The position numbers and the translations under genes are program-made. A stretch of 64,000 nucleotides of DNA from Eledone cirrhosa (taxonomy: Eukaryota). The stretch spans positions 97,154,001 through 97,218,000 of the forward strand of contig OZ024744.1 of the NCBI GenBank assembly GCA_964016885.1, given 5' to 3'. Below the pieces are notes generated by a model, which ran no database searches, was not told the origin of the DNA, and saw nothing but the letters and a program-made list of their open reading frames with translations. Numbering within the stretch: the stretch's first letter is position 1; every line of letters starts with the position of its first letter. Below, in pieces: positions 8,503-48,659 of this stretch.

Positions 8503-8949
8503 AATAATTGTTTCTACATTTGGCACAATGTCATCAATTACCACAGTGCATTACTGGTACTTTATTTTATCGACCCCGTAAGGATTAAAGGCAAAGTTAA
8601 CCTTAGCGGGATTTGAACTATGACTGTAAAGGGACGTAACTCTTTGGTCAAAGCATGGCGTCCGACCCTCTACCAATACTGCCAATCCACCGCCAATAAT
8701 TGTTTCTACTTTAGGCACAAGGCCAGCAATTACCAGTGTATTACTGGTACTTTATTTTATCGACCCCGTAAGGATTAAAGGCAAAGTCAACCTCGGAGGG
8801 ATTTGAACTCAATCCACCGCTAATAATTGTTTCTATATTAGGCACAAGGCCAGAAATTACCCAGTACATTACTGGTACTTTATTTTATCGACCCCGTAAG
8901 GATGAAAGGCAAAGTTAACACCGGCGGGATTTGAACTCAGATCCACCGC
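8503..8949 (-). mobile_element. Three head-to-tail SINE copies (8503-8694 full; 8695-8820 and 8821-8949 internally deleted)
   Basis: Minus-strand head GGCGGTGGATTGGCAGTATTGG (A-box-like), AGTTCAAATCC (B box), the same core, and ATTATT tails. Each 5' end abuts the tail of the next copy. Confidence 0.88.
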
Positions 8950-9021
8950 TAATAATGCAACTTCTACATGATCGATCGACATGTTAGAAATAACGACCAA
9001 ATGAAAGCCTACGACATTCTC

Positions 9022-17900: not shown

Positions 17901-20187
17901 GACTTACCTTCTGAGTCCAGGAAGATGGTCCGTATGGCGAGACCCAAGCCCTTCCGAAACAACACAGCCACTCCCCCCCCGCTCCCAGACGGCTCCGAGA
18001 TGCGTACATCTCGTAACCGTTGAAGATCGGTGCGAAATCATGCGTTTCGGAGATTCTCGTCTCGCTGATGGCCATCACATCTATGTTTAGTGACCTGAGG
18101 TCGTTAAGCAAGTGACCCTGCTTCCAAATCGAGCTCAAGCCACGCACGTTTACATTTCCGATCCTGAATACAGCCATGTTGGGTGAGGAACGGGGTAAGT
18201 GAGAAAGGATCACTTACCTTGATCGTCTGGTGAAGGGACCGTTGAATCGTCCCTTCGGCTGGTCGTCGGCTCTTCTGTGAGTATATCCGAGTATACTCTC
18301 CGGTTGAGTGTCCCTCCTAGGTCTCTGAAATCACCAACTGCGTTGGGGAATTTCATTTTAATGTTTGTGTATTGTTTCTGTGCTATTCCTACCAGTCTTA
18401 TGTTCGTTGGTGTTTTGATTGGTGCTGGTATTATGTAGTGGTGCTGTGAAATGTCTGTGTGATCAATTATGTCAGTCATTAGTTTCTTGTGTGTATTTAT
18501 TGCTGTGCATTTCTTTTTCTGTGGGTGGGGTGTGGTTCTGCTATTTTCTTGTCGTTGCTGGGTGTGCGTGTTTTGTTGTGTTTGCGATGTTGGTGCTTGT
18601 GGTGGTGTTGTTGAAGGTGTTGTTGTTGTTGGCGGTGGTTCTGTGAGGTCGGGAGGGGTATCAGCTCCACTCTTTCACTTGTTCTTGTTGGTGATGGGTG
18701 CAGTGGAGTCTCTGTTGCAGCTGCAGTTGGTATTACTGTTGTTGTTGTTAATACTTCCACTGCTGCTGCTGTTCTTGATTTCCGTGGCGTGGGTATTGGT
18801 GCCACGGACCTATCCTTTCTGCTTGCCGCCTGTCCTGTTGCTGGTAGCAGGGGAGCCGGTTTCGGAAGGAGGGGGATTTCTCCTTTCTCAGGGTCTTTTC
18901 TTTGCAGAAAGCCCTGATGTGAGTCTTCGACCCACAGCGAAAGCATTTCGGGCGTTTGCCCTCAACACTTATGGGAAGTTGAGTGCCGTTATCGAAGTCT
19001 ATCACATCCGGGATAGCTTCGATGCACTCCTGGTTGGTTTGAATTAACATTTCAATGGAGGTACTTTTTTCTGTACTTGCAGTACAGTTGTTTTGTCCGC
19101 GATTCCGACGAGGACAGACGCGGCCAGCCAAGAAGGAGCCATCCCGGGGGGGGGGGGGGGGGGGGGACTTGGGTCAGTTTGACCCTCACAACTTTTTGCC
19201 CGCAGTAGGAGGGCACCAACACCATTTCCTTGCTCCTTAGGGTTCCTAAGGATTGAGCGTTTGCCTCCTGGGGTGTGGCAAAAAGCACGTCCACGGTGGC
19301 ATATTTCTTGCATCTGGTAATATGCGTTTTCCGCTGCCACACAGACTCTAAGGCTTTTTGTATTTGAGCCTCTGTGGCTCTTTCAACCCTACGTGATTTT
19401 GTGCTTACTGTACGGTACGTGACCGTACAGTGCTGTTGGGTTTCGAAAAATTCTTCGGCTGTCTTGCAGATTGCTCGGTGTCCGGTTTTCGTCACCATCT
19501 TCTTTGCTTCCTGTAATTCCTCATTTGTTATAAGGATGATTTCCAGGTTCTTTGCGATACCTGCAAACGAGATTGGTTTTTCTTTCTTGTTGTTGTTGTT
19601 GTTGTCGTCAGAGCTGCTGTTACTTTTGTTGTTGCTGCTGCTGGTCCTACGACCGCCGCCGCCGCTGTTGTTGTTGTAGTTGTTGCTGTTGCTGCTTCTG
19701 TTGTTGTTGCTGCTGCTGCTGTTGTTGTTTATGCTGCTGCTGATGTTGTTGCGGCTGCTACTAGTATTTTTCTCGCCTCGCCACTGTTGCTGCAGCTGCT
19801 GTTATTACGGCTGCTACTGCTATTCTTCATGACGTCAGACGAATGAAATGGCTTTCCGTATTTACCGCACACATCTTTCGTCGTTGTCGTCGTCGTGGAG
19901 AAATGTTCCACGGTATGCGCATTCTCTTGATGAAGAACGCTACGAGAAACTACATTTTTCTTTTTCTTTAATGGTGTCGCTTGCGAAAGAAGCGACAGAG
20001 GCGACACCACATTTAGAGAAGGGAGGGAGAGAGACAATCTTTTCTCTGACGTACTGATGATTGGAGAAGAAGAAGACGGAAGGAGTGGGAGTGACTTGTG
20101 AAAATACTTTTTTGTAGCCATGTTTTTTTACGCTTTAAAATGAATATTGGGCACAAATCCCCAATAACTGGTTATTTAACCCCGAAG
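14933..20187 (-). mobile_element. Decayed L1/Tx1-like LINE, lineage D1 (ORF1 remnants ~18210-20121, ORF2 remnants 15202-~18177)
   Basis: Fragmented APE endonuclease (NVNVRGL, ISETR), RT (DQSKAFDRV, RQGCPLS) and C-terminal Zn finger. ORF1 resembles that of the young copies; the ORF2 N-terminus and 3' UTR are divergent. Confidence 0.92.
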
Positions 20188-25424: not shown

Positions 25425-28400
25425 GGGAAGGGGAAGAAGACGCACGAGGTGATGGAGGTCATGAAATCGCTCCCGTAAGTTTTGAATTTTTAACATATTT
25501 AAATCATTTGTGAAATAACAACTCTTAGTACAAATGCTACGTAAAGCACCCGGCTTGAGCCCCAAAAAATTCGGACCCAAAATATATTGTTATAAGGCTC
25601 AAATATTCAAATATTCAACTTTGTATTGTACACTATATATCCAAAAAAAAAATGGCTATAAATGGAAGAAGAAGAAGAACCCCCCCCCCCTCCTCTCCTC
25701 TGGCTACACTATATAGGACAGCTAAACTCACCAACACCAGAAACTAGATACACCACCCACCCCATCATCTGTGTACACTAAACACAACAGCATTTTCACC
25801 TTCACCGCCACCGCTCACTACGGCCATCATTACCACCACTATCCCATCACCGCCGCCACCACCCCTTGACTCCTTCACTGCTGCTGCCACCGCTACAGCA
25901 CCATCACTACAGTAATACGGTCGCATCACCGCCACCACTGCCTCGGTATCGACATCACCACCACCACTGTCTCAGTATCGCCAACGCTGCCAGTCTCCAA
26001 CTTCTCCATGCTGGCTGCCACTTCCACATTATAGAATTCCTACTATGAACAAAGAGGAAGGCATCAAAATATATAGATAGACTCAAAAGAAAAAAGAAAA
26101 AACAAACAACAAAACCAAAGCAGCACAGCAACAACAGCAAAAAACGAGAAAAACAAACAGAGAAAAACAAAAACAAAAAAAACCCCCCAAAACGTAAAGA
26201 AAATAAGAATGAAGAGAGAAGCAGGCGGACGGACAGAGAAGAGGGGGGAAAAAGTAAAACTTAAAAAACAAAAACTAAGTCAGACATTCGAATGCTACAT
26301 TACAATGAAACTTATGCTTATTCATTTTTGGGGCCCTTTCTGCCCGTGTGTTTGTTTGTTTATGTGTGTTCGTATACAGCGTGGTGATAATGCCACACAA
26401 GGGCCAAGTGGGATGGCGGATCCACAGATGGCTATGTAAACATACATTCGCCAATCCTCGATAAGAGTGTTTAAATATCGAACATAAACAGTTCGAATAA
26501 CGGTGAAATGGAGACTAGAACGTCATGTGACAGACTCTCACCCAACAGGTGCCCCCTGGCTCAGCAGCAGGAACCTGACTGTCAACCAAATACTGCTGAT
26601 GTTGGAGGAAGAAGAAGAAGGAAAGGGGCCAGAACCAACTGGACGAAAGAATTGAATAGAACTGTTATGCAATGCTACCTGAAAAGTAACCCCAAGGAGA
26701 GGGGCTACAGGAGACGGATGCATAACATCTGGAACGAGATTGGTTTATTTAAATTAGATGAACAAAAATTGGCCGGGCAGGCTCGGGTAATAAGAACTAA
26801 TGGGTGGATAAGCGAGCTGGAACTGGAGGAACTGAGCAGAGAGAATGGCTTGGAGATGGCGGGTGTAGTATGCCAGACAAGCGAGCCAGCGGGAAATGAA
26901 GGTGAGGAGGTCCTGAGAACGGAGGAACCACCCGAAGCAGACAATGATCTGAATACTGAGATAAATAATACCTGGAACAGAGATACGGCCACTGAGGAGA
27001 TGAATGCTGACGGGCTAGGACAAGATTCGGTTGACATCCTAAATTTAGTGGTAGATGAGTTGAACAATGATAGTGGGAGACCTATGAACCTAAGATTTGT
27101 AGACAGGAAAAAGTTAAAAGAAACAACAGCTAGGGTAAACAAAGTCATCCCATACCTTGAGGCGAGGAACCTTCACCAGTGCAACAATATCCTCAAAGCA
27201 ACAGCAAATACGGTGAGGAAACTACTTGGTATAAAAGCGAGAGGAAACAACAGACAAGAAAGAGCAGAGCCGTGGTGGAAGAAGCGACTGAGTGGGCAAA
27301 TCGGGGAAATGAGAAATGACATAGGAAAGCTTGAGTCACTACTGAATGGGACACTAAAAAACGTAGGCACTAAAAATAGACTGGAAATAAAATACAAAAC
27401 TAGGAGTAAAAAGCTAAATATTATCATAGAGGAATTGAAGCAACGCATTGTAGCAAAGAGTGCCAAAATCAGGCGATACGAGAACAGAGTCAGTCAGTAT
27501 AAACAGAACCGCATGTTCGACAACAACCAGAAGATGCTGTTTGGACAGCTTGAGGGGAAAGAAAGAGGCAACGACTTGATCCCTGGGGCGGAACAAGCTA
27601 AAACATTCTGGAGAGGAATATGGGAGCAGGATGTTAGACACAATGCCCAGGCAGGGTGGATTGAGACAGTACAGAGGGAGATCGGTGAGCAGGCACAGCA
27701 ACAAACTGATTTGAGTATCACAGTTGAAACTCTTAAGGGGCAAGCCAAAAAACTAACCAACTGGAAATCACCAGGCCCAGATGGTGTGCAGGGGTATTGG
27801 ATTAAACATTTAACATCCCTCCACCCGAAGCTGACGGCCATGTTCAATGACTGCTTGGTGTCGGGTGAGGTGCCAGAGTGGTTGACAAAAGGTACCACAG
27901 TTCTGATAATGAAAGACCGAATCAAGGGTAATGATGCTACCAACTATAGACCTATCACATGTCTGCCCGTAATGTGGAAACTGTTGACGAGCATTGTGTC
28001 TGAGGAAATCTACCATCACCTCCACACAAACAACTTGTTACCGGACGAACAGAAAGGATGCCGAAAGAAGTCACGTGGTACAAAGGACCAGTTGCTTATT
28101 GATAAGATGGTAATGGGGAATTGCAGGAGGAGACACACTGATCTTGCCATGGGATGGATAGACTACAGAAAGGCATTTGACATGGTGCCTCATTCCTGGA
28201 TCACCAAAAGCCTGGAGATCTTCAGGGTGGCAGATAACATCAGACAGTTGCTGGGCAGGAGTATGGGGTCCTGGGAGACAGAGTTGACATCAACTGGAGT
28301 ATCCTTGGGAAGCGTGAAGATCAAGAGAGGTATCTTCCAGGGAGATAGCCTGTCCCCTCTGTTGTTTGTCCTTGCCCTGATGCCCTTGACCATTATGCTG

Positions 28401-29973
28401 CGAAAAGTGAGAGCAGGATACAAGTTGAGAAGGGGAGAGCTTACCATCAATCACCTCCTCTTCATGGACGATCTTAAGCTCTTCGGGAAAAGTGAGAAGG
28501 AGTTGGATGTGCTTGTTGACACTGTCCGTATTTTCAGCAGTGATATATGTATGCAGTTTGGTATTGGTAAATGTGGAGTCATTGTGATGAAGAGGGTAGG
28601 TTGAGCAGAAGTAACGGGATCCAGATACCAACAGGTGAGATGATAAAGGAAATTGACTCTGAGGAGGGATACAAGTATTTGGGCGTTCTGGAGGCTGATG
28701 GCATAAAGAACAAAAAAATGAAGGAATTGTTAAGAACTGAATACATTCGGAGAGTAAGGAGCGTATTGAAGTCACATCTGAACAGCAGAAATGCCATAAG
28801 CGCAGTAAATTCCCGAGCTGTGTCTATTATCAGGTACAGTGCGGGAATTCTGAGATGGAATGTTGCTGAACAAAAAGAAATGGATAGGAAGACTAGGAAG
28901 CTATTGACTATCTACAACATGTTCCACAAGAGGAGTGATGTCGATAGACTCTACCTAAGGAGATCTGAGGGTGGAAGAGGTCTTATCAGCATAGAGGACT
29001 GTGTTCAGATGGAGAAAAACAACCTATACAAATACGTGACCTATAGTAAGGAGCCAATGCTCAGAACTGTACTGAAGGAGGGGACAGTAGGCCAGGGGAT
29101 GTCCAAGGAGGAAATAACATCAAGGAGGAAGAGCAGCCTTAAGGGAAAATCCCTTCATAGTACCTTCTTTGAGAAAACTGAATTTAGAGATCCACAGACA
29201 TGGAACTGGTTGAGAAGAGGAGACCTCAAAAAGGCTACAGAAGGAATGCTAATGGCTGCGCAGGAGCAGGCCCTCAAAACGAAGTGGTTGAAGCACCATA
29301 TCTACAAGGAGGAGGCTAGCCCACTGTGCAGGATCTGTGGAGAGAGAGAGGAGACTGTGGCTCACATTGTGTCCGAGTGTAAACACCTAGCCCAGACCCA
29401 CTATAAGGGCTGGAGACACGATGTGATGGGCAGGGTGATCCACTGGCACCTGTGCAAAGTAAACAATCTACCACATTCTGAGAAATGGTATGAGCATAGG
29501 CCAGAGGCGGTGATGGAGAACAGTCAGGTGAAGGTGCTGTGGGATTTTAGGATACAGACGGACAAAAAACTGGAACACAATAGACCTGACCTGGTGGTTG
29601 TGGACAAAGAAAAAAGATCGTGCCTGATTGTGGATGTGGCCTGCCCGTTCGACACGAGAGTGCAAGAGAAGGAGAGGGAGAAAATTAACCGATACCAGGA
29701 CCTAAAGTGGGAGGTGAAAAGGATTTGGAACTGCCATGAAGTCAAAGTGATCCCGATTGTCATAGGCGCACTGGGGACTATCTCCCAAAGTTTCCAGGGA
29801 TGGTTAAAGAAAATCGGCCCCTTCACGCTTTTTGGAACGCTTCAAAAGGCATGCTTGCTTGGAACAGCAAGAACCCTCCGATACGTCCTGAATATCTGAG
29901 GCTGCAGGTAGTGGCTTGATATTCAATCCAACGGACTTTCCAGTTAACCAACATCAATGACTGAGATTCAAGG
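25424..29973 (+). mobile_element. Apparently full-length R4/Dong-clade non-LTR retrotransposon (5' boundary uncertain)
   Basis: Single RT-CCHC-RLE reading frame, bounded by (AAT)n on both sides. Assigning 25424-26507 to the 5' UTR is an inference. Confidence 0.8.
26508..29899 (+). CDS. R4/Dong-type polyprotein (RT + CCHC zinc finger + restriction-like endonuclease), one frameshift at ~28593
   Basis: Motifs NWKSPGPDGV, YRPITCLP, IDYRKAFD, GIFQGDSLSP, LFMDDLK, CRIC..ETVAHIVSEC, RHD and RPDLVVVD...DVACPFD. ORFs 26508..28604 and 28571..29899 are joined by a one-G loss (AGGGT here, AGGGGT in the copy at ~13525). Confidence 0.92.
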
Positions 29974-29986
29974 AATAACAATAATG

Positions 29987-30066
<80 letters not shown>
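29974..30066. repeat. (AAT)n tract shared as tail by the Dong-like element (+) and Tx1-like copy 1 (-)
   Basis: About 30 AAT units between two convergent element 3' ends. Confidence 0.95.
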
Positions 30067-30068
<2 letters not shown>

Positions 30069-30329
30069 TTTCTTTATTAACCACAAGGGTTTACATAAAG
30101 TAGACATTAAGGACAGTGCAGGACAATGAAGGACGGTACAAATGGGCATTTCTGCGTGTAAAAAAAACAAAAACAGAGGATGTAACAAAAATAACAATGA
30201 AAATAACAATGAAAAATTCCCCAATAGGGGGGAGACTTCGGAGGGACATTTGTGGAGAAAGCCCAGTAAAAAGCCACAATGACCCTGACCACCAAGGCAA
30301 GTGCCCTCTCCCAGTTTTCCACCTTTAGT

Positions 30330-33300
30330 TTACAGATATATACTCAGAGTCGGCCCATTCACTCGGGCCATTCTTGCTTCTCTCACCCATCTTTCAACAA
30401 AATGCTGGGAAGAGAGCACTTCCTTCTCTACTCTGATTTTCCTTTTCAAATGAAATTTGAAAAAGTCAATCAGAGCATCACCGAAGAGGTAAGTGCTCGT
30501 CTTCAGCCCTTTCAAACGTGTCCACCATACTATCTCTTTCGCCATGGCCACCAGACAGATAAAAACTGCCTGCCCTTCCCGGCTAAAGGAGGAGGGCGGG
30601 GCAATCCTCACGATAGACTCAGATGATAGCTGGATCCGTCCTAAACGCGACAGCAGGTGTTCGACATAAACCCACAAGTCAGCAATTTTCGGACACTGGA
30701 CGAGTGCGTGTAGGACGGTTTCGTCGCCCTGCGCGCATCTCGGACATGCCCGGCTGACGGCACCTCCATGCCTGTAGAGTTTATCCCGAACTGGCAAGGC
30801 TCCTCGGTAGCACTGCCAGGCCAGAGATTTCTGGAAGTTGTCCATAGGCCCTGGCCCGAAAGTTCTTCCGAAGAGATTGGCTAGTTGATTTTCGTCGACG
30901 CCTAGAGTTTCCCCAAGTACGTCGTCGCTCTTCCCCTCCACTAATCCTCTATAGAACGCCGAGGTGGAGTTTCCACCGATCACATTGCCCGATTGGTCGA
31001 GGGCTGTGAGCGCCTGAAGACATTCCAGTCTCCAGGCGCTCCCTCTCGGTCTTCGCTTGACCCAGGACTGCAGCTCCGTCAAGGAAACGAGCTGGGGAAA
31101 AACGCGTCTAGCAAACGGCGACCACACCTGATCACCGTCGAGGAAGAGGTGGAGATGTCGTAGCCTGAGCGCGTGCCTGCGCATCATCAGCCACGGCATG
31201 CCCAGCCCTCCACGTAGCGGGTGTTGACAACAGATGGACCGCCTGACCATCGGAGCACGTCCCTTCCACAAAAAGCGAAAGAGCAAACGCTCCAGCGCAG
31301 TCAGGCGAGGCTTAGGACAAGGTACGACGGTTAGGCGGTAGCAGATGACAGACGCGATGTACGCGTTAGCCACCTCCGCTCGACCTTTCAGGGATAGCTT
31401 CCTCTCCGCCCATTTCTGGGTGAGAGAAGCCACCCTGCTCGTCACCTCGTCCCAGTTTTTGTCCGTCTGGAGGTCCGGACCGAACCAGACCCCTAGCAAT
31501 TTAACCGGTCCGTCCGTCCAGCGCCCGACGACGCTGTTGGACGGCATGGACCTGCCTCTCCAGGTGCCGAGCTGCAGGCCCACTGACTTTTCCTGGTTGA
31601 TCATTGCTCCTGTCACCGCTTCGTATTCTCTTAGTGTAGTGCCGATCGCCTCGATGTGTTTGGCGTTCGACACCACTACGGTGACATCGTCCGCATATGC
31701 TGACACGGATCTTCCGCATCCTAGTTCGCGCGGGACTCCCCTCAACGTCTCCAGTTTGTGCAGTAATGGCTCGAGCGTCAATACGTACAAGAGGGACGAG
31801 AGGGGACATCCTTGGCGGACCGAGCGCATGATGTTGAACGGTTCCGACAGGTGACCGTTCACTCTCACCACAGAGCAGATGTCGCTGTGCATGGCAGCGA
31901 TCCAGCCTCTGAAGACGGGCCCAAAGCCAGCCGCCCTCAGGACTGCCGCTAGGTAACGATGGTCGACCCTATCGAAAGCTTTCGACTGATCTAAATTGAT
32001 CAAGGACCCACCCGTGCCAGGTTCCCTAGCTACCCTCTCTACGATGTATCGCATGAGGTGGAGGTTGTCGTGGATGGATCTGTCGGGAATGGCGCATGTC
32101 TGCGCCTCTCCCACCAGACCACCAACGACAAGCGCCAACCTCTTTGCTAGCACCTTGGCCAAAATCTTAAACTCTGTGTTTAGCAGAGTTATGGGCCGGA
32201 AATTGTCTATGTTATCCCCCTTGTTCGGATCCTTTCTCAGCAGTGCCACCGCTCCTCGGCTCACAGAACTGGGAATTCTCCCGTTCTGTTGCCAGTTGCA
32301 GTAGACGTCCGCCAAGAGGCCTCCGAACAAGTCTGGCATCTGTACGTAAAGTTCATAGGGCAGACCATCCAAACCAGGCGATTTACCCCTTGTGCAGCCA
32401 GTCATTGCCTCCCTTACTTCAGCGGCTGTTATCGGCTTTTCGCAACACTTCGCCTCAGTGGCCGAGAGCCGCGGCAGCCCGTCGAGGTAGACACTAAAGT
32501 CCATCGCTCTACCCGGCCCACCGCTGCCCCCGAACAGCTGAGCGAAGTGTCGCTGAAAAGCTTCACACATTTGCCCGGGATCGAGTAGCATGCGCCCGTC
32601 GTGGTCCACCAAAGACCGGATCGTGGCTTTGTTGCCACGACGCGCCTCCGCCACTCGGGCCCATTGAACGGCTTTCGTCCCCTCGTGTCTGAGAGCACGC
32701 ACCCTAGCTCTGACAACGCAGCCTTCGTGCTTTGCATTGAAGAATTGGTCAAGGGCCAATTTCGCCGCAAGCACGTCGGTCGCAATGCCTTTGCTAAGCG
32801 CCTCGTCTAATTTTCTAACTAGTTCTCCCTCTGCTCTATTTTTCTCTATTGCTAAAGCCTTACTAAACCTAATCGATTCTATTCTAATCGCTCTTTTCAG
32901 AGCAAACCACCACTTGTTGTTGACGATGGCCCCCGTCAACGCCCGCTTAACTAGTTCGCTAATCCGGTCTCTGTAGGCCTTGCGCGCTGGTAAGGACGCG
33001 TTTAGCTTCCAGTAGCCGGGTCCTCGTCTATGAAGCCTATCTAGGTCAAGCACACAGATCACGAATTTGTGGTCCGTGTAGCTGACTATCTTGAATTGTG
33101 GACAGCCTATGCTAGACCTATCTATTTCCCTACAAAATACTCTATCTAGATATGATCTGGATGACCCTATGCGGTTTGTCCAAGTCCACATTGGCACATT
33201 CGGGAAATCCAATCGGTACCTGTCAGACAGTTCAAAACGCCTGAGCAGGTTGGTGAGGCTCTTGCACCCTCCACCCCTATCCGCTAATCCCACACAGTCC

Positions 33301-33749
33301 CAGCGTGCATCTAAGATCCCGTTCCAGTCGCCCACTAACACTAAAGAGCGGGACGTTCCAAGAAAGGTCTCCAGACGCCGGAAGAAATCAGGCCGCCCTG
33401 CTCCTGTCGGGGCATAGACGGCCACTAGCCTGAAAGCTTGCCCGTCTCCGCTGGTCACGTCCAGCACCACCAGCTTACCCTCTGGGTCCAGGAAGATGGC
33501 CCGTATGGCGAGATCCAAACCTCTGCGAAAAAGCACAGCAACTCCTCCACCCGATCCAGGACGGCTGGGAGATGCGTACACATCGTAGCCGCCGAAGATC
33601 GGTGCGAAGGCCCGTGCTTCGGAGATTCTGGTCTCGCTGATGGCCACTACATCTATGTTTAGTGACCTGAGGTCGTTGAGCAGGTGACCCTGCTTCCATG
33701 ACGACCCCAAGCCACGCGCATTTATGCTGCCTATTCTGAGTGAGGTCAT
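30330..33749 (-). CDS. ORF2p: APE endonuclease, reverse transcriptase, C-terminal zinc finger (1139 aa)
   Basis: Endonuclease: SINARGL, ISETR, GDWN, YLDRVF, TDH. RT: GKSPGLDGLP, FRPITLLN, DQSKAFDRV, QGCPLS, YADD. Zinc finger: CPRC...ETVLHALVQC. Confidence 0.96.
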   Translation of the reverse strand: MTSLRIGSINARGLGSSWKQGHLLNDLRSLNIDVVAISETRISEARAFAPIFGGYDVYASPSRPGSGGGVAVLFRRGLDLAIRAIFLDPEGKLVVLDVTSGDGQAFRLVAVYAPTGAGRPDFFRRLETFLGTSRSLVLVGDWNGILDARWDCVGLADRGGGCKSLTNLLRRFELSDRYRLDFPNVPMWTWTNRIGSSRSYLDRVFCREIDRSSIGCPQFKIVSYTDHKFVICVLDLDRLHRRGPGYWKLNASLPARKAYRDRISELVKRALTGAIVNNKWWFALKRAIRIESIRFSKALAIEKNRAEGELVRKLDEALSKGIATDVLAAKLALDQFFNAKHEGCVVRARVRALRHEGTKAVQWARVAEARRGNKATIRSLVDHDGRMLLDPGQMCEAFQRHFAQLFGGSGGPGRAMDFSVYLDGLPRLSATEAKCCEKPITAAEVREAMTGCTRGKSPGLDGLPYELYVQMPDLFGGLLADVYCNWQQNGRIPSSVSRGAVALLRKDPNKGDNIDNFRPITLLNTEFKILAKVLAKRLALVVGGLVGEAQTCAIPDRSIHDNLHLMRYIVERVAREPGTGGSLINLDQSKAFDRVDHRYLAAVLRAAGFGPVFRGWIAAMHSDICSVVRVNGHLSEPFNIMRSVRQGCPLSSLLYVLTLEPLLHKLETLRGVPRELGCGRSVSAYADDVTVVVSNAKHIEAIGTTLREYEAVTGAMINQEKSVGLQLGTWRGRSMPSNSVVGRWTDGPVKLLGVWFGPDLQTDKNWDEVTSRVASLTQKWAERKLSLKGRAEVANAYIASVICYRLTVVPCPKPRLTALERLLFRFLWKGRAPMVRRSICCQHPLRGGLGMPWLMMRRHALRLRHLHLFLDGDQVWSPFARRVFPQLVSLTELQSWVKRRPRGSAWRLECLQALTALDQSGNVIGGNSTSAFYRGLVEGKSDDVLGETLGVDENQLANLFGRTFGPGPMDNFQKSLAWQCYRGALPVRDKLYRHGGAVSRACPRCAQGDETVLHALVQCPKIADLWVYVEHLLSRLGRIQLSSESIVRIAPPSSFSREGQAVFICLVAMAKEIVWWTRLKGLKTSTYLFGDALIDFFKFHLKRKIRVEKEVLSSQHFVERWVREARMARVNGPTLSIYL

Positions 33750-33783
33750 GTTTAAATAGAGTGGAAAAGATGGGAAAGACCAC

Positions 33784-35913
33784 TTACCGTACTTTTGGTA
33801 GAGGAGGGATGGTTTTTACATCCCTTTTCACTTGATCGTCTGGTGAAGGGACCGTTGAATCGTCCCTTCGGCTGGTCGTCGGCTCTTCTAAGAGAATGTC
33901 TGAATATACTCTTCGATTGATGGTTCCTCCTAGGTCCCTGAAATCACCAACTGCGTTGGGGAATTTCGTTTTAATGTTTGTGTATTGTTTCTGTGCTATT
34001 TTTAGCAGTCTTATGTTAGTTGGCGTTTTGATTGGTGCTGGTATTATGTAGTCCTGTTGTGAAATGTCTGTGTGTTCAATTATGTAAGTCATTAGTTTCT
34101 TGTTGTGTGTGTTTATTGCCGTGCATTTGTTTTTCTGGGGGTGGGGTGTGGTTCTGCTATTTTCTTGTCGTTGTTGCTGGGTGTGTGTGTTTTGTTGTTG
34201 TGTTTGCGATGTTGGTGCTTGTGGTGGTGGTGTTGAAGGTGTTGTTGGCGGTGGGGTTGTCGCCGGTGGTGATGGTGGTGCTAGTGTGGGTGGTGATGGT
34301 GTTGGTGTTGTTGCTGCTGTGGGTCTCTTTGCAGTAGACTTTACCCTTTTCTCATTTCTTTCCTCCCTTTTCAAAGGCGACGATGCGCTGCTTCTGCGTT
34401 TGTGCCTTCTTGCGACCTTTTGCCATCCCTCTCCCACCTCACACTCCATGTCTGATTCTGTGAGGTCGGGGAGGGGTACCAGCTCCACTCTTTCACTTGT
34501 TGTTGTTGGTGATGTTTGCACTGGAGTCTCTGTTGCAGCTGCATTTGGTATTGCTGTTGTTGTTGTTAATATTTCCACTGCTGCTGCTGTCTTTGATTTC
34601 CGTGGAGTGGGTATGGGTGCCACGGACCTATCGTTCCTGGTTGCCGCTTGTCCTGTTGCTGGTAGCCGTGGAGCCGGATTCGGAAGGAGGGGGGTTTTCT
34701 CCTTTCTCAGGGTCTTCTCGTTGCAGAAGGCCCTGAGGTGAGTCTTCGATCCACAGCGAAAGCATTTCGGGCGTTTGCCCTCAACACTTATGGGCAGTTG
34801 AGTGCCGTTATCGAAGTCTATCACATCCGGGATAGCTTCGATGCACTCCTGGTTGGTTTGGATTAGCATCTCAATGGAGGAGCCGACCCAATCTTCTCTT
34901 ACTTTTTTCTGTACTTGCAGTACAGTTGTTTTGTCCTCGATTCCGACGAGGACAGACGCGGCCAGCCAAGAAGGGGTCATTCCGGGGGGGACGTGGGTCA
35001 GTTTGACCCTCACAATTTTTTGCCCGCAGTAGGAGGGCACCAACACCATTTCCTCGCTCCTTAGGGTCACTACTGATTGGGCCTTTGCCTCCTGGGGTGT
35101 GGCAAAAAGTACGTCTACGGTGGCGTATTTTTTGCCTCGGGTGATGTGCGTTTTCCTCTGCCACACAGACCCCAAGGCTTTTTGTATTTGGGCCTCTGTG
35201 GCTCTTTCCACCCTACGGGATTTTGTACTTACTGTACGGTACGTGACCGTACAGTGCTCTTGGGTTTCGAAAAAATTTTTCGCTGCCTTGCAGATTGCTC
35301 GGTGTCCGTTCTTTGTCACCATCTTCTTCGCTTCCTCTAATTCCTCATTTGTTATGAGGATTGTTTCCAAGTTTTTCGCAATACCTGCAAATGAGATTGG
35401 TTTGTCTCTGCTGTTGTTGTTGTCGTCAGAGCTGCTGGTACTTTTGTTGTTGCTGCAGGTACTACGACTACTGCCTCCGCCGCTGTTGCTGTGGTTGTTG
35501 TTGGTGTTGCTGCTGCTAATGCTGTTGTTGTTTATGCTGCTGGTGATGCTGTTGCGGCTGCTACTGTTGTTTTCATTGTCACTGTTGCTGTTGTTATTAC
35601 GGCTGCTACTGCTATTATTCCTGACGTCAGACGAATGAACTGGGTTTTCGTATTTCCCGCACACCTGTTTCGTCGCTGTCGTCGTCGTCGTGGAGAAACT
35701 TTGCACGCTTTGCACGAGACTTTTCTTTTCTTTCGTCACTTGCGAAAGAGAAGGGAGGGAGAGAGACACATTTAAAGAAGGGAGGGAGAGAGACAATCTT
35801 CTCTCTGCTGTAGTGATGATTGAGGAAGAAGAAGACGGAATGAGTGGGAGTGACGTATGAAATTTCTTTTTGGTAGCCATGTTTTTTTGTTTAAAATGAA
35901 ATTTTGGGTACAA
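33784..35913 (-). CDS. ORF1p: gag-like nucleic-acid-binding protein with CCHC knuckle (709 aa; likely ATG start at 35880, MATKKK)
   Basis: CFRCGSKTHLRAFC (CX2CX4HX4C), flanked by S/N-rich and P/T-rich low-complexity regions; lies directly upstream of ORF2. Confidence 0.9.
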   Translation of the reverse strand: MYPKFHFKQKNMATKKKFHTSLPLIPSSSSSIITTAERRLSLSLPSLNVSLSLPSLSQVTKEKKSLVQSVQSFSTTTTTATKQVCGKYENPVHSSDVRNNSSSSRNNNSNSDNENNSSSRNSITSSINNNSISSSNTNNNHSNSGGGSSRSTCSNNKSTSSSDDNNNSRDKPISFAGIAKNLETILITNEELEEAKKMVTKNGHRAICKAAKNFFETQEHCTVTYRTVSTKSRRVERATEAQIQKALGSVWQRKTHITRGKKYATVDVLFATPQEAKAQSVVTLRSEEMVLVPSYCGQKIVRVKLTHVPPGMTPSWLAASVLVGIEDKTTVLQVQKKVREDWVGSSIEMLIQTNQECIEAIPDVIDFDNGTQLPISVEGKRPKCFRCGSKTHLRAFCNEKTLRKEKTPLLPNPAPRLPATGQAATRNDRSVAPIPTPRKSKTAAAVEILTTTTAIPNAAATETPVQTSPTTTSERVELVPLPDLTESDMECEVGEGWQKVARRHKRRSSASSPLKREERNEKRVKSTAKRPTAATTPTPSPPTLAPPSPPATTPPPTTPSTPPPQAPTSQTQQQNTHTQQQRQENSRTTPHPQKNKCTAINTHNKKLMTYIIEHTDISQQDYIIPAPIKTPTNIRLLKIAQKQYTNIKTKFPNAVGDFRDLGGTINRRVYSDILLEEPTTSRRDDSTVPSPDDQVKRDVKTIPPLPKVR

Positions 35914-36093
35914 AACCCCAATAACTGGTTATTTAACCCCGAAGGGCCAAATAACGGACAGAAAGACCCCTCTCACGAGGAGGAGGGTGTCTTTATCAAC
36001 AATTTGGTTCAAGTTTTAAACAATTTACAATTGTTTTAACGGTTAAAAATTACTATACCTTACAGAGCCGAGCCTCCGTCAACCATGGCATTC

Positions 36094-36125
<32 letters not shown>

Positions 36126-36385
36126 TTTCTTTATTAACCACAAGGGTTTACATAAAGTAGACATTAAGGACAGTGCAGGACAATGCAGGACGGTACAAAT
36201 GGGCATTTCTGCGTGTAAAAAAACAAAAACAGAGGATGTAACAAAAATAACAATGAAAATAACAATGAAAAATTCCCCAATAGGGGGGAGACTTCGGAGG
36301 GACATTTGTGGAGAAAGCCCAGTAAAAAGCCACAATGACCCTGACCACCAAGGCAAGTGCCCTCTCCCAGTTTTCCACCTTTAGT

Positions 36386-39300
36386 TTACAGATATATACT
36401 CAGAGTCGGCCCATTCACTCGGGCCATTCTTGCTTCTCTCACCCATCTTTCAACAAAATGCTGGGAAGAGAGCACTTCCTTCTCTACTCTGATTTTCCTT
36501 TTCAAATGAAATTTGAAAAAGTCAATCAGAGCATCACCGAAGAGGTAAGTGCTCGTCTTCAGCCCTTTCAAACGTGTCCACCATACTATCTCTTTCGCCA
36601 TGGCCACCAGACAGATAAAAACTGCCTGCCCTTCCCGGCTAAAGGAGGAGGGCGGGGCAATCCTCACGATAGACTCAGATGATAGCTGGATCCGTCCTAA
36701 ACGCGACAGCAGGTGTTCGACATAAACCCACAAGTCAGCAATTTTCGGACACTGGACGAGTGCGTGCAGGACGGTTTCGTCGCCCTGCGCGCATCTCGGA
36801 CATGCCCGGCTGACGGCACCTCCATGCCTGTAGAGTTTATCCCGAACTGGCAAGGCTCCTCGGTAGCACTGCCAGGCCAGAGATTTCTGGAAGTTGTCCA
36901 TAGGCCCTGGCCCGAAAGTTCTTCCGAAGAGATTGGCTAGTTGATTTTCGTCGACGCCTAGAGTTTCCCCAAGTACGTCGTCGCTCTTCCCCTCCACTAA
37001 TCCTCTATAGAACGCCGAGGTGGAGTTTCCACCGATCACATTGCCCGATTGGTCGAGGGCTGTGAGCGCCTGAAGACATTCCAGTCTCCAGGCGCTCCCT
37101 CTCGGTCTTCGCTTGACCCAGGACTGCAGCTCCGTCAAGGAAACGAGCTGGGGAAAAACGCGTCTAGCAAACGGCGACCACACCTGATCACCGTCGAGGA
37201 AGAGGTGGAGATGTCGTAGCCTGAGCGCGTGCCTGCGCATCATCAGCCACGGCATGCCCAGCCCTCCACGTAGCGGGTGTTGACAACAGATGGACCGCCT
37301 GACCATCGGAGCACGTCCCTTCCACAAAAAGCGAAAGAGCAAACGCTCCAGCGCAGTCAGGCGAGGCTTAGGACAAGGTACGACGGTTAGGCGGTAGCAG
37401 ATGACAGACGCGATGTACGCGTTAGCCACCTCCGCTCGACCTTTCAGGGATAGCTTCCTCTCCGCCCATTTCTGGGTGAGAGAAGCCACCCTGCTCGTCA
37501 CCTCGTCCCAGTTTTTGTCCGTCTGGAGGTCCGGACCGAACCAGACCCCTAGCAATTTAACCGGTCCGTCCGTCCAGCGCCCGACGACGCTGTTGGACGG
37601 CATGGACCTGCCTCTCCAGGTGCCGAGCTGCAGGCCCACTGACTTTTCCTGGTTGATCATTGCTCCTGTCACCGCTTCGTATTCTCTTAGTGTAGTGCCG
37701 ATCGCCTCGATGTGTTTGGCGTTCGACACCACTACGGTGACATCGTCCGCATATGCTGACACGGATCTTCCGCATCCTAGTTCGCGCGGGACTCCCCTCA
37801 ACGTCTCCAGTTTGTGCAGTAATGGCTCGAGAGTCAATACGTACAAGAGGGACGAGAGGGGACATCCTTGGCGGACCGAGCGCATGATGTTGAACGGTTC
37901 CGACAGGTGACCGTTCACTCTCACCACAGAGCAGATGTCGCTGTGCATGGCAGCGATCCAGCCTCTGAAGACGGGCCCAAAGCCAGCCGCCCTCAGGACT
38001 GCCGCTAGGTAACGATGGTCGACCCTATCGAAAGCTTTCGACTGATCTAAATTGATCAAGGACCCACCCGTGCCAGGTTCCCTAGCTACCCTCTCTACGA
38101 TGTATCGCATGAGGTGGAGGTTGTCGTGGATGGATCTGTCGGGAATGGCGCATGTCTGCGCCTCTCCCACCAGACCACCAACGACAAGCGCCAACCTCTT
38201 TGCTAGCACCTTGGCCAAAATCTTAAACTCTGTGTTTAGCAGAGTTATGGGCCGGAAATTGTCTATGTTATCCCCCTTGTTCGGATCCTTTCTCAGCAGT
38301 GCCACCGCTCCTCGGCTCACAGAACTGGGAATTCTCCCGTTCTGTTGCCAGTTGCAGTAGACGTCCGCCAAGAGGCCTCCGAACAAGTCTGGCATCTGTA
38401 CGTAAAGTTCATAGGGCAGACCATCCAAACCAGGCGATTTGCCCCTTGTGCAGCCAGTCATCGCCTCCCTTACTTCAGCGGCTGTTATCGGCTTTTCGCA
38501 ACACTTCGCCTCAGTGGCCGAGAGCCGCGGCAGTCCGTCGAGGTAGACACTAAAGTCCATCCCTCTACCCGGCCCCCCGCTGCCCCCGAACAGCTGAGCG
38601 AAGTGTTGCTGAAAAGCTTCACACATTTGCCCGGGATCGAGTAGCATGCGCCCGTCGTGGTCCACCAAAGACCGGATCGTGGCTTTGTTGCCACGACGCG
38701 CCTCCGCCACTCGGGCCCATTGAACGGCTTTCGTCCCCTCGTGTCTGAGAGCACGCACCCTAGCTCTGACAACGCAGCCTTCGTGCTTTGCATTGAAGAA
38801 TTGGTCAAGGGCCAATTTCGCCGCAAGCACGTCGGTCGCAATGCCTTTGCTAAGCGCCTCGTCTAATTTTCTAACTAGTTCTCCCTCTGCTCTATTTTTC
38901 TCTATTGCTAAAGCCTTACTAAACCTAATCGATTCTATTCTAATCGCTCTTTTCAGAGCAAACCACCACTTGTTGTTGACGATGGCCCCCGTCAACGCCC
39001 GCTTAACTAGTTCGCTAATCCGGTCTCTGTAGGCCTTGCGCGCTGGTAAGGACGCGTTTAGCTTCCAGTAGCCGGGTCCTCGTCTATGAAGCCTATCTAA
39101 GTCAAGCACACAGATCACAAATTTGTGGTCCGTGTAGCTGACTATCTTGAATTGTGGACAGCCTATGCTAGACCTATCTATTTCCCTACAAAATACTCTA
39201 TCTAGATATGATCTGGATGACCCTATGCGGTTTGTCCAAGTCCACATTGGCACATTCGGGAAATCCAATCGGTACCTGTCAGACAGTTCAAAACGCCTGA

Positions 39301-39804
39301 GCAGGTTGGTGAGGCTCTTGCACCCTCCACCCCTATCCGCTAATCCCACACAGTCCCAGCGTGCATCTAAGATCCCGTTCCAGTCGCCCACTAACACTAA
39401 AGAGCGGGACGTTCCAAGAAAGGTCTCCAGACGCCGGAAGAAATCAGGCCGCCCTGCTCCTGTCGGGGCATAGACGGCCACTAGCCTGAAAGCTTGCCCG
39501 TCTCCGCTGGTCACGTCCAGCACCACCAGCTTACCCTCTGGGTCCAGGAAGATGGCCCGTATGGCGAGATCCAAACCTCTCCGAAAAAGCACAGCAACTC
39601 CTCCACCCGATCCAGGACGGCTGGGAGATGCGTACACATCGTAGCCGCCGAAGATCGGTGCGAGGCCCGTGCTTCGGAGATTCTGGTCTCGCTGATGGCC
39701 ACTACATCTATGTTTAGTGACCTGAGGTCGTTGAGCAGGTGACCCTGCTTCCATGACGACCCCAAGCCACGCGCATTTATGCTGCCTATTCTGAGTGAGG
39801 TCAT
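36386..39804 (-). pseudogene. ORF2 of copy 2 with a 1-bp deletion at ~39663
   Basis: GGTGCGAGGCCC here versus GGTGCGAAGGCCC in copies 1 and 3. The true start MTSLR at 39804 goes out of frame after ISEARA. Could be a sequencing error. Confidence 0.85.
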
Positions 39805-39839
39805 GTTTAAAATAGAGTGGAAAAGATGGGAAAGACCAC

Positions 39840-41969
39840 TTACCGTACTTTTGGTAGAGGAGGGATGGTTTTTACATCCCTTTTCACTTGATCGTCTGGT
39901 GAAGGGACCGTTGAATCGTCCCTTCGGCTGGTCGTCGGCTCTTCTAAGAGAATGTCTGAATATACTCTTCGATTGATGGTTCCTCCTAGGTCCCTGAAAT
40001 CACCAACTGCGTTGGGGAATTTCGTTTTAATGTTTGTGTATTGTTTCTGTGCTATTTTTAGCAGTCTTATGTTAGTTGGCGTTTTGATTGGTGCTGGTAT
40101 TATGTAGTCCTGTTGTGAAATGTCTGTGTGTTCAATTATGTAAGTCATTAGTTTCTTGTTGTGTGTGTTTATTGCCGTGCATTTGTTTTTCTGGGGGTGG
40201 GGTGTGGTTCTGCTATTTTCTTGTCGTTGTTGCTGGGTGTGTGTGTTTTGTTGTTGTGTTTGCGATGTTGGTGCTTGTGGTGGTGGTGTTGAAGGTGTTG
40301 TTGGCGGTGGGGTTGTCGCCGGTGGTGATGGTGGTGCTGGTGTGGGTGGTGATGGTGTTGGTGGTGTTGCTGCTGTGGGTCTCTTTGCAGTAGACTTTAC
40401 CCTTTTCTCATTTCTTTCCTCCCTTTTCAAAGGCGACGATGCGCTGCTTCTGCGTTTGTGCCTTCTTGCGACCTTTTGCCATCCCTCTCCCACCTCACAC
40501 TCCATGTCTGATTCTGTAAGGTCGGGGAGGGGTACCAGCTCCACTCTTTCACTTGTTGTTGTTGGTGATGTTTGCACTGGAGTCTCTGTTGCAGCTGCAT
40601 TTGGTATTGCTGTTGTTGTTGTTAATATTTCCACTGCTGCTGCTGTCTTTGATTTCCGTGGAGTGGGTATGGGTGCCACGGACCTATCGTTCCTGGTTGC
40701 CGCTTGTCCTGTTGCTGGTAGCAGTGGAGCCGGATTCGGAAGGAGGGGGGTTTTCTCCTTTCTCAGGGTCTTCTCGTTGCAGAAGGCCCTGAGGTGAGTC
40801 TTCGATCCACAGCGAAAGCATTTCGGGCGTTTGCCCTCAACACTTATGGGCAGTTGAGTGCCGTTATCGAAGTCTATCACATCCGGGATAGCTTCGATGC
40901 ACTCCTGGTTGGTTTGGATTAGCATCTCAATGGAGGAGCCGACCCAATCTTCTCTTACTTTTTTCTGTACTTGCAGTACAGTTGTTTTGTCCTCGATTCC
41001 GACGAGGACAGACGCGGCCAGCCAAGAAGGGGTCATTCCGGGGGGGACGTGGGTCAGTTTGACCCTCACAATTTTTTGCCCGCAGTAGGAGGGCACCAAC
41101 ACCATTTCCTCGCTCCTTAGGGTCACTACTGATTGGGCCTTTGCCTCCTGGGGTGTGGCAAAAAGTACGTCTACGGTGGCGTATTTTTTGCCTCGGGTGA
41201 TGTGCGTTTTCCTCTGCCACACAGACCCCAAGGCTTTTTGTATTTGGGCCTCTGTGGCTCTTTCCACCCTACGGGATTTTGTACTTACTGTACGGTACGT
41301 GACCGTACAGTGCTCTTGGGTTTCGAAAAAACTTTTCGCTGCCTTGCAGATTGCTCGGTGTCCGTTCTTTGTCACCATCTTCTTCGCTTCCTCTAATTCC
41401 TCATTTGTTATGAGGATTGTTTCCAAATTTTTCGCAATACCTGCAAATGAGATTGGTTTTTCTCTGCTGTTGTTGTTGTCGTCAGAGCTGCTGGTACTTT
41501 TGTTGTTGCTGCAGGTACTACGACTACTGCCTCCGCCGCTGTTGCTGTGGTTGTTGTTGGTGTTGCTGCTGCTAATGCTGTTGTTGTTTATGCTGCTGGT
41601 GATGCTGTTGCGGCTGCTACTGTTGTTTTCATTGTCACTGTTGCTGTTGTTATTACGGCTGCTACTGCTATTATTCCTGACGTCAGACGAATGAACTGGG
41701 TTTTCGTGTTTCCCGCACACCTGTTTCGTCGCTGTCGTCGTCGTCGTGGAGAAACCTTGCACGCTTTGCACGAGACTTTTCTTTTCTTTCGTCGCTTGCG
41801 AAAGAGAAGGGAGGGAGAGAGACACATTTAAAGAAGGGAGGGAGAGAGACAATCTTCTCTCTGCTGTAGTGATGATTGAGGAAGAAGAAGACGGAATGAG
41901 TGGGAGTGACGTATGAAATTTCTTTTTGGTAGCCATGTTTTTTTGTTTAAAATGAAATTTTGGGTACAA
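39840..41969 (-). CDS. ORF1p of copy 2 (709 aa)
   Basis: Near-identical to copy 1 ORF1, with the CCHC knuckle. Confidence 0.9.
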   Translation of the reverse strand: MYPKFHFKQKNMATKKKFHTSLPLIPSSSSSIITTAERRLSLSLPSLNVSLSLPSLSQATKEKKSLVQSVQGFSTTTTTATKQVCGKHENPVHSSDVRNNSSSSRNNNSNSDNENNSSSRNSITSSINNNSISSSNTNNNHSNSGGGSSRSTCSNNKSTSSSDDNNNSREKPISFAGIAKNLETILITNEELEEAKKMVTKNGHRAICKAAKSFFETQEHCTVTYRTVSTKSRRVERATEAQIQKALGSVWQRKTHITRGKKYATVDVLFATPQEAKAQSVVTLRSEEMVLVPSYCGQKIVRVKLTHVPPGMTPSWLAASVLVGIEDKTTVLQVQKKVREDWVGSSIEMLIQTNQECIEAIPDVIDFDNGTQLPISVEGKRPKCFRCGSKTHLRAFCNEKTLRKEKTPLLPNPAPLLPATGQAATRNDRSVAPIPTPRKSKTAAAVEILTTTTAIPNAAATETPVQTSPTTTSERVELVPLPDLTESDMECEVGEGWQKVARRHKRRSSASSPLKREERNEKRVKSTAKRPTAATPPTPSPPTPAPPSPPATTPPPTTPSTPPPQAPTSQTQQQNTHTQQQRQENSRTTPHPQKNKCTAINTHNKKLMTYIIEHTDISQQDYIIPAPIKTPTNIRLLKIAQKQYTNIKTKFPNAVGDFRDLGGTINRRVYSDILLEEPTTSRRDDSTVPSPDDQVKRDVKTIPPLPKVR

Positions 41970-42149
41970 AACCCCAATAACTGGTTATTTAACCCCGAAG
42001 GGCCAAATAATGGACAGAAAGACCCCTCTCACGAGGAGGAGGGTGTCTTTATCAACAATTTGGTTCAAGTTTTAAACAATTTACAATTGTTTTAACGGTT
42101 AAAAATTACTATACCTTACAGAGCCGAGCCTCCGTCAACCATGGCATTC

Positions 42150-42181
<32 letters not shown>

Positions 42182-42433
42182 TTTCATTTATTGGCCACAA
42201 GGGCCGACATATAGGGGACAACACAATAGACAGGGACAGTGGGGGTTTACATAGAGATCGAGTAAGTATAAATAACAAAAAAAACAAAATAACAATAAAA
42301 ATACAACAATGAAAGTTCCCCAATAAGAGGGATCACCACCCAGGGTTGACTCAAGCACCCCACCAGTCCTGAGCCACCCGACGCTCCTAGGGCACCCGGG
42401 AAGGGCACCCCTCTCCTTCTCGAATTCACCAGC

Positions 42434-45856: not shown

Positions 45857-45890
45857 GTTTAAATAGAGTGGAAAAGATGGGAAAGACCAC

Positions 45891-48020: not shown

Positions 48021-48207
48021 AACCCCAATAACTGGTTATTTAACCCCGAAGGGCCAAATAACGGACAGAAAGACCCCTCTCACGAGGAGGAGGGTGTCTT
48101 TATCAACAATTTGGTTCAAGTTTTAAACAATTTACAATTGTTTTAACGGTTAAAAATTACTATACCTTACAGAGCCGAGCCTCCGTCAACCATGGCATTC
48201 AATAATC

Positions 48208-48239: not shown

Positions 48240-48387
48240 TGTGTCTACTATTGGCACAAGGCCAGCAATTTTCCAGTACATTACTGGTACTTTATTTTAT
48301 CGATCCAGTAAGGATGAAAGGCAAAGTTAACCTCGTCGGGATTTGAACTCAGATTATAAAGAGCCGTAACTCTTTGCTGCAAAGCCA
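48210..48387 (-). mobile_element. 5'-truncated SINE with (ATT)10 tail between array copies 3 and 4
   Basis: Same family as 8125-8949; retains the B box GAGTTCAAATCCC and lacks the head. Confidence 0.9.
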
Positions 48388-48659
48388 AATAATAATGATT
48401 TCTTTATTAACCACAAGGGTTTACATAAAGTAGACATTAAGGACAGTGCAGGACAATGCAGGACGGTACAAATGGGCATTTCTGCGTGTAAAAAAAACAA
48501 AAACAGAGGATGTAACAAAAATAACAATGAAAATAACAATGAAAAATTCCCCAATAGGGGGGAGACTTCGGAGGGACATTTGTGGAGAAAGCCCAGTAAA
48601 AAGCCACAATGACCCTGACCACCAAGGCAAGTGCCCTCTCCCAGTTTTCCACCTTTAGT

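Follow-up and report, generated by a model that had tools for sequence, protein, structure and literature searches.

Shared SINE and LINE tails are textbook knowledge, and a locus of Eledone cirrhosa, in which several L1-type LINEs and a tRNA-type SINE terminate in a small predicted hairpin with a CUUGU loop, raises the question of whether the two kinds of element are partners, and whether it is the hairpin that the LINE enzyme reads. The window, i.e. the whole stretch of 64,000 nucleotides that was analysed (contig OZ024744.1, positions 97,154,001 to 97,218,000), contains four LINEs of the L1/Tx1 group, each of about 6 kb, arranged head-to-tail from 30067 to 54418 and lying in antisense orientation within the (AAT)n tail of another LINE, which we take, from its protein motifs, to be Dong/R4-like (Table 1). 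Dong-R4 is one of the LINE clades listed for octopus (PMC13282606). The decayed copy D1 likewise lies within a Dong-like (AAT)n tail, the second such tail in the window. In each LINE of the array, ORF1 contains a zinc knuckle, and ORF2, about 1140 amino acids long, comprises APE endonuclease, RT and zf-RVT domains; in copy 2 a frameshift is present close to the start of ORF2. Copies 3 and 4 each have a 5'-truncated SINE ahead of them; the SINEs at 48240 and 54458 represent one event, because the stretches 48201-48388 and 54419-54606 are identical (0 differences in 188 positions).

Table 1. Features of the window; positions are counted from its first nucleotide.
Feature	Position	Strand	Remarks
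SINE cluster, about six older copies	8132..8956	both	several head-to-tail
D1, decayed Tx1-like copy, third subfamily	14933..20187	-	hairpin AGCC-CUUGU-GGCC at 14945-14957, 3 bp
Dong/R4-like LINE (presumed clade)	26440..29979	+	RT and CCHC; restriction-like endonuclease motif PD..D; array inserted in its (AAT)n tail
(AAT)n run	29980..30066	+	serves as Dong tail and as Tx1 target; on the Tx1 strand it reads (ATT)n
Tx1-like LINE copy 1, full-length	30067..36093	-	ORF1 and ORF2
Copy 1 linker AAUAAA-GAAAUC	30067..30078	-	GAAA common to the SINE, AAUAAA in the LINE only; putative function
Copy 1 terminal hairpin AACC-CUUGU-GGUU	30079..30091	-	predicted in the MFE structure, pair probabilities 0.65-0.89
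Copy 1 ORF2	33749-30330	-	APE endonuclease, RT, zf-RVT
Copy 1 ORF1	about 35880-33784	-	CX2CX4HX4C knuckle
Tx1-like LINE copy 2	36124..42149	-	in (ATT)n adjoining the 5' end of copy 1; hairpin 36136-36148
Tx1-like LINE copy 3, chimera	42180..48200	-	hairpin GGCC-CUUGU-GGCC at 42193-42205
tRNA-type SINE, 5'-truncated	48240..48385	-	B box, central domain; hairpin UGGC-CUUGU-GCCA at 48252-48264
Tx1-like LINE copy 4	48397..54418	-	hairpin 48409-48421
SINE, duplicate of the 48240 copy	54458..54603	-	part of a repeated [SINE + LINE 5' end] unit

The ORF2 product matches Pfam families PF03372, PF00078 and PF13966, and its closest solved structure is human L1 ORF2p (E 2e-52; R2 1e-21); the predicted architecture, with an APE endonuclease, an RT and a C-terminal cysteine-rich zinc region, places the LINEs of the window in the L1 group. 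A zinc knuckle in ORF1 is a feature of the Tx1 clade, and the CX2CX4HX4C knuckle found here agrees with it; the flanks, which consist of (ATT)n, (ATCT)n or (AT)n depending on the family, correspond to a Tx1-like target preference. No named Tx1 reference was present among the homologues retrieved, which included an Octopus sinensis gene model matching over a short stretch, and the Tx1 label is based on architecture, on targeting and on the fact that L1-Tx1 is the sole L1-group entry among the active octopus LINEs in Table 1 of PMC13282606.

The motifs quoted in the initial annotation are all present on the minus strand: AACC-CTTGT-GGTT-AATAAAGAAATC-(ATT)n at 30091-30067, 36148-36124 and 48421-48397, GGCC-CTTGT-GGCC-AATAAATGAAATC at 42205-42180, AGCC-CTTGT-GGCC at 14957-14933 in D1, and TGGC-CTTGT-GCCA at 48264-48252 and 54482-54470 in the SINE. 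The end that three different LINEs were said to share is there, but the outer pair of D1 is A.C, hence its stem has 3 bp and not 4; likewise, among the SINE copies adduced in its support, the hairpin holds at 48240, but the copies at 8713 and 8841 read GCCT (3-bp stem) and the one at 8234, on the plus strand, has no ATT run. The 48240 SINE is itself atypical, as its linker is ATAGTAGACACA, the usual forms being AAAGTAGAAACA and TAAAGTAGAAACA. CTTGT by itself is not enriched in the 64-kb window (132 occurrences against 179 expected).

Genome-wide, 11 multi-copy Tx1 families end in NNCC-YUBGU-GGNN-AAUAAA..GAAA, and a degenerate pattern of the LINE end gave 24,023 matches, while its reversed control gave 0. 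Nearly all of the 30 matches to the 3' UTR that were retrieved, from 40 listed, terminate in one motif, and when loci were selected by zf-RVT only, 28 of 30 kept a recognisable one, as judged by reading. The string YTBGTGGNNARTAAA follows 130 of 152 ORF2 C-termini, a share that is inflated because many of these loci were retrieved through their 3' end; its carriers form 11 multi-copy clusters plus 9 singletons, the clusters reaching down to about 50% amino-acid identity. Of the other 22 C-termini, most have decayed by a single change, are truncated or have had their end replaced by a SINE. Among representatives of the 11 families, which were picked as motif-bearing, the terminal 23 columns are 84% identical, compared to 28-63% for the UTR and 71-77% for the ORF2 coding DNA: the module is conserved above the UTR in which it lies. 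Tx1 families targeting (ATCT)n or (AT)n retain it. The loop had been regarded as constant; instead, CTTGT, CTGGT, CTCGT and TTTGT all occur among the Tx1 families, with variation at positions 1 and 3. AAUAAA is invariant across all Tx1 representatives and, because the SINE lacks it, this part of the linker is likely a Pol II polyadenylation signal that serves the LINE only.

The second partner has the properties of a SINE: it is short (about 185 nt) and non-coding, has A-box-like and B-box-like motifs (judged by eye), duplicates its target and occurs in many copies; locus L063 contains a natural full-length copy that has both boxes and an 18-bp duplication. ARAGORN and Rfam gave no tRNA match on it. 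Its central domain may be of the Deu/Nin type, and 169 matches to this domain comprised 127 short forms, 20 long and older forms, and 22 others. An identity with MetaSINEs was considered and dropped, as no resemblance was seen by eye to the BivaMeta and BivaMD sequences in the supplement of PMC4824008, which were used for the comparison in place of the 66-bp Meta consensus itself. Partial duplications of the element's own 5' head are common among SINE copies (L057, L082, L084, L085, L086).

The SINE ends in GGC-CUUGU-GCC..GAAA, in gapless register with the Tx1 ends, and the distance from the loop to the element end is 16 nt both in the SINE and in most Tx1. The SINE has no AAUAAA, and its short form is devoid of most of the upstream tail; loop, stem, GAAA and the 16-nt spacing are kept. 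The SINE-end pattern has 135,183 matches in the genome, its reversed control 0, and every sampled instance, when read upstream, proved to be a SINE or a truncated SINE. The fourth pair is broken in about half of the SINE ends (67,257 for the A form, with a slightly longer pattern, against 135,183). The median nearest-neighbour identity is 96% for the SINE, 98% for Tx1 and 99% for a young CR1 family (CR1-A), so that all these copies are young. A search for SINE subfamilies bearing a canonical Tx1 tail yielded none, only 18 isolated chimeras or stubs. The stubs at L381-L398 are Tx1 pieces of 25-30 nt, made up of hairpin and linker, within SINE tails, and represent an extreme 5' truncation; they include families that usually target (ATCT)n.

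The initial annotation had raised the possibility of a LINE tail elsewhere in the genome that matches the SINE better; none was found among 20 CR1, RTE, Dong, Nimb and I-like ends. LINEs were surveyed through domain searches (best 150 matches), evenly spaced regions totalling 400 kb and a tblastn search of all loci. The 20 ends are five CR1-type, eleven RTE, two Dong, one Nimb-like and one I-like, clades that we assign on the basis of protein motifs; a CR1 in L400, a Hero/NeSL-like piece (L403) and an old Dong (L401), in which a 3' end could not be defined, do not enter the tail scores. In end-anchored comparisons, the SINE tail reaches scores of 10-30 with 11 Tx1 ends and of 0-8 with the 20 others, the latter rising to 12 when 12 of the ends are trimmed by up to 4 nt; the module is absent from the other clades sampled. 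The partnership originally put forward is thus upheld in that the SINE tail resembles every Tx1 end and no sampled non-Tx1 end, and in that the SINE has a Tx1-like target duplication. The homology between the 3' ends is present but short, about 25-30 nt, and bivalve SINE/LINE pairs share longer stretches (35-61 bp, as reported in PMC11481361). A chance likeness between two short AT-rich ends, of which CTTGT would be a common ingredient, is hardly credible: among 1200 ATTAT-flanking sites taken as null (mean score 2.2), a score of at least 18 was reached by only 8, the top 7 were decayed SINE or Tx1 tails, and the anatomy of the target agrees independently. The highest score (up to 30) belongs to the older, long SINE tail and, because this form matches the Tx1 ends best, the SINE tail probably derived long ago from a Tx1 3' end.

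About 1.8 Mb of the 3.0 Gb were surveyed, for the most part loci from domain searches limited to the best 150 matches, which leaves some room for a partner outside the sample, namely an unsampled or extinct LINE with a closer 3' end, such as another Tx1/L1 branch, L2, Hero, R2 or a low-copy RTE. No sampled Tx1 has the exact stem of the SINE: the second pair is G-C in the SINE and C-G in Tx1, and none among 152 ORF2 C-termini was followed by the SINE's G-C pair. Moreover, the SINE occupies sites with shorter ATT runs (median of 2 units, i.e. short ATTAT sites, versus 5 for ATT-type Tx1). Against such an outside partner, however, the LINE that moves a young SINE of 135,000 copies is expected to be abundant, the sampled SINE ends read upstream revealed nothing other than the SINE, and sampling reached four large clades among those recently active in Octopus vulgaris, which are RTE, Dong-R4, CR1, L1-Tx1, Hero and R2 (PMC13282606 and its Table 1). 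This explanation is therefore considered improbable, and Tx1 itself quite probably the partner of the SINE.

Insertion sites were compared by scoring duplications that are exact, non-repetitive, at least 10 bp long and starting at the element end. Such duplications were found at 42 of 131 SINE ends (null 1%); they measure 10-26 bp, all start with ATTA and are mostly preceded by C or T. Since they begin at ATT, the ATT following the SINE is target and not an added tail. Tx1 families not directed to ATT gave 6 of 41 ends (null 3%), four genuine duplications of 13-19 bp and two tandem artefacts. In ATT-type Tx1 the duplication is hard to score, because it is itself an ATT repeat: it was called in 1 of 87 ends, an earlier count of 9 in 41 is not above its null of 19%, and 14 of 49 called 5' junctions have at least 8 bp, many others being miscalled for lack of references. 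None of 67 CR1-A ends has a duplication as defined, with the 5' junction within reach for about 30; duplications of at least 9 bp are present in 3 of 30, all after the tail in AT-rich DNA. In the length and start of its duplication, the SINE matches the non-ATT Tx1 families and differs from CR1-A, which adds (ATT)n ahead of a short or absent duplication, whereas the SINE has a long duplication and no added tail.

The (ATT)n run, which had been proposed as a marker of the partnership, is mostly the insertion target, and it is not diagnostic of the partner because the young CR1 family, too, ends in a hairpin followed by (ATT)n. CR1-A has 11,066 end matches, many intact 945-aa frames and a terminal hairpin of its own, and CR1-SINE pairs are reported as common in molluscs (PMC11481361), so that a mobilization of the SINE by this family had to be weighed; its tail scores 0-2 against the SINE, its loop and spacing are different, and its 67 ends without a long duplication contrast with the long, tail-free duplications of the SINE, which makes it a very improbable driver. 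CR1-A copies (L111-L140, L311-L340) insert in TA-rich sites with an added (ATT)n tail, and some carry a tandemly doubled 3' UTR (L207, L312, L318, L327).

In a non-random sample of loci, a SINE on the same strand comes immediately after 15 of 87 ATT-type Tx1 ends, against 0 of 41 for other Tx1, 2 of 67 for CR1-A and 0 of 25 for RTEa. Of the 87 ATT-type Tx1 ends, 19 directly adjoin the 3' end of a Dong element in antisense orientation. ATT-type Tx1 repeatedly insert, in antisense, into (AAT)n tails belonging to two Dong/R4-like families (in the window, 14912-14932 and 29980-30066), so that two unrelated endonucleases, of Tx1 and of Dong/R4-like elements, exploit one microsatellite from opposite strands. 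In one Tx1 family an identical, non-microsatellite flank is found at four loci (L286, L298, L302, L380), hinting that this family targets another repeat.

The hairpin was examined by folding and by covariation. Pair probabilities of at least 0.7 were obtained for 10 of 12 Tx1 end representatives; the values for five SINE variants are 0.87, 0.46, 0.01, 0 and 0, i.e. the hairpin is clearly predicted in one SINE end of five. The folding energy of the whole end was no better than that of shuffles in five folded ends (z from -0.96 to +0.26). According to these predictions, the terminal hairpin is marginal, and poorly predicted in most SINE variants. A longer basal helix including the terminal CAUUA appeared in single folds of Tx1-A, Tx1-C and one SINE, but was inconsistent and was discarded. 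In the Tx1 stem the two inner C-G pairs are invariant, the third is G-C or A-U, and the fourth is U-A, G-C, A-U or G-U, being unpaired in 3 of 10 rows; the stem often consists of 3 bp only. Two-sided changes, which the initial annotation had described as compensatory, are indeed seen, but the covariation is modest and built on few events: in the alignment of Tx1 only, double changes occur at 2 of 4 pairs, with a score reached by 3 of 500 shuffles, and in that of Tx1 plus SINE at 3 of 4 pairs, with a score reached by 0 of 500; slid controls score lower, and relatedness alone can beat shuffles.

These data also bear on a relaxed Tx1 partnership, in which annealing of the AUU end would suffice and the LINE would retain the motif for the sake of Pol II 3' processing (AAUAAA and, upstream of it, a U/G-rich element) and the SINE would retain it as an inherited relic. 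The invariance of AAUAAA in the Tx1 representatives, a hairpin energy at the level of shuffles, the poor prediction of the hairpin in 3 of the 5 SINE ends and the variability of loop positions 1 and 3 are all in line with it. However, the SINE, devoid of AAUAAA, still keeps loop, stem, GAAA and the 16-nt spacing, the stem changes are two-sided, and the module persists in the Tx1 families directed to ATCT and AT; the relaxed version thus appears rather unlikely. As for the reading of the hairpin by ORF2p that the initial annotation had suggested, the hairpin is better predicted in the Tx1 ends than in most SINE ends and the covariation is modest; recognition through the hairpin is, in our opinion, somewhat more probable than the contrary. 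The joint proposal, that Tx1 ORF2p recognises the terminal module on the RNA and that ATT-targeting Tx1 mobilise the SINE in trans, is likewise held to be moderately probable.

On the basis of established TPRT and of the loop-specific, stem-tolerant recognition by ZfL2 (PMC4176376), a mechanism may be envisaged for this preferred reading. The module would consist of a predicted 3-4 bp stem closed by C-G, the YUBGU loop, the A-rich linker and GAAA, and ORF2p would bind its hairpin on the RNA; the APE endonuclease would nick the bottom strand at (C/T)^ATTAT, and a primer ending in ...AATAAT-OH could anneal to the AUU of the RNA end. Reverse transcription would then begin at a fixed point past GAAANN, and a second nick, 10-20 nt off, would produce the target duplication. 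The SINE, as a Pol III transcript, may have dropped AAUAAA while retaining hairpin, spacing and GAAA. As every insertion would restore an ATT site at its own 3' end, LINEs and SINEs would pile up head-to-tail, which is the arrangement found in the window.

Hairpin-bearing pairs of the L1 clade have been described in plants and algae: ZmSINE2 and ZmSINE3 with LINE1-1_ZM in maize and sorghum (monocot 1a L1 lineage), in which the terminal hairpin is shared with a tRNA SINE, and SINEX-3_CR with L1-1_CR in Chlamydomonas (PMC3472496, PMC3747384). According to the same sources, these pairs have, like the Tx1 ends of E. cirrhosa, compensatory stem changes and a conserved loop and 3' flank and, like the E. 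cirrhosa pair, were deduced from sequence only; unlike it, their LINEs end in poly(A) and about 50-80 nt are shared, compared to about 25-30 nt. The E. cirrhosa pair further differs in belonging to an animal Tx1-type lineage, in targeting microsatellites and in a SINE without an added tail. The table of stringent pairs in PMC3747384 lists no animal L1 or Tx1 pair. In crocodilians, SINEU resembles the present case in the assignment to a Tx1 partner (Tx1-Mar), a common target preference, tandem insertions and 5' additions, to which the partial 5'-head duplications of the E. cirrhosa SINE are comparable; however, as described in PMC4494074, SINEU has snRNA heads and poly(A) tails, no LINE was found to share its 3' end, and the link is by target only, whereas the E. 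cirrhosa SINE is of the Pol III tRNA type and shares its 3' module with Tx1. UnaL2/UnaSINE1 and ZfL2-1/ZfL2-2 also carry a terminal stem-loop near a short repeat, with a specific loop and an exchangeable stem; those elements belong to the L2 clade, were demonstrated by assay and encode their repeats (PMC4176376), whereas here the LINE is of the L1 group, the case is built on sequences and the stem is much smaller. Finally, family-specific microsatellite targets, as found here for (ATT)n, (ATCT)n and (AT)n, are known for Kibi (TC)n, Koshi (TTC)n and the crocodilian (TTCC)n and (TTTC)n Tx1 families, for which the account in PMC4494074 describes no conserved terminal hairpin.

For molluscs, the SINE partners reported in bivalves are CR1, CR1-Zenon, L2 and Nimb (PMC11481361, PMC4824008, PMC4758252, PMC5786205). 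In Octopus vulgaris, SINEs account for about 11.6% of the genome and are mostly unclassified; the 2026 annotation recognises 13 L1-Tx1 families as active, along with 893 active SINE families left unclassified, and, in its available part, makes no mention of the partners of the SINEs (PMC13282606). A published report of this particular Tx1/SINE pair was not found in the literature searched, repeat-database entries and some supplements aside. The E. cirrhosa pair, which is genome-wide, is best read as a Tx1/SINE partnership of the stringent type and would not constitute a new kind of system; sequence-specific recognition of the tail would nevertheless be unusual among animal relatives of L1. According to a proposal by Ohshima, a specific 3' structure was read by the ancestral elements of the L1 clade, poly(A) recognition being a product of parallel relaxation; the stringent examples were from plants and algae, and tests in other lineages were urged (PMC3747384). 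An animal example with multiple families and young, intact copies makes this proposal testable with one ORF2p and a 30-nt tag. It also separates RNA recognition, which is constant, from DNA targeting, which is variable, and it names Tx1 as the likely driver of octopus SINEs. We give an even chance to the broader combination, in which an animal Tx1 lineage kept a hairpin-based recognition, swapped its targets among (ATT)n, (ATCT)n and (AT)n, and drives the SINE explosion of octopus; if true, a portable RNA tag of 30 nt would make any transcript a substrate for a tail-free, microsatellite-directed enzyme of the L1 type.

Other features of the window deserve mention. Copy 3 shows 0 differences from copy 1 across its 5' 4.5 kb, while its 3' 1.5 kb comes from another subfamily and carries an open ORF2; together with the exact duplication of the [SINE + LINE 5' end] unit, this chimera in the 42180-48200 region of the array suggests template switching, read-through transcripts or unequal exchange within the array. 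Another Tx1-like copy, distinct in its 5' end and its ORF1 and without a 3' end, occupies 20185-25354 and abuts the 5' region of D1. ORF fragments at 733-1233 and 11374-11907 resemble the C-terminus of an LTR-retrotransposon integrase and a PIF1/Helitron helicase, respectively. Two satellites are present: a 17-bp one at 1692-7973, whose orientation flips at 3020, and an AT-rich 37-bp one at 58581-63648, with a higher-order duplication of 2.9 kb.
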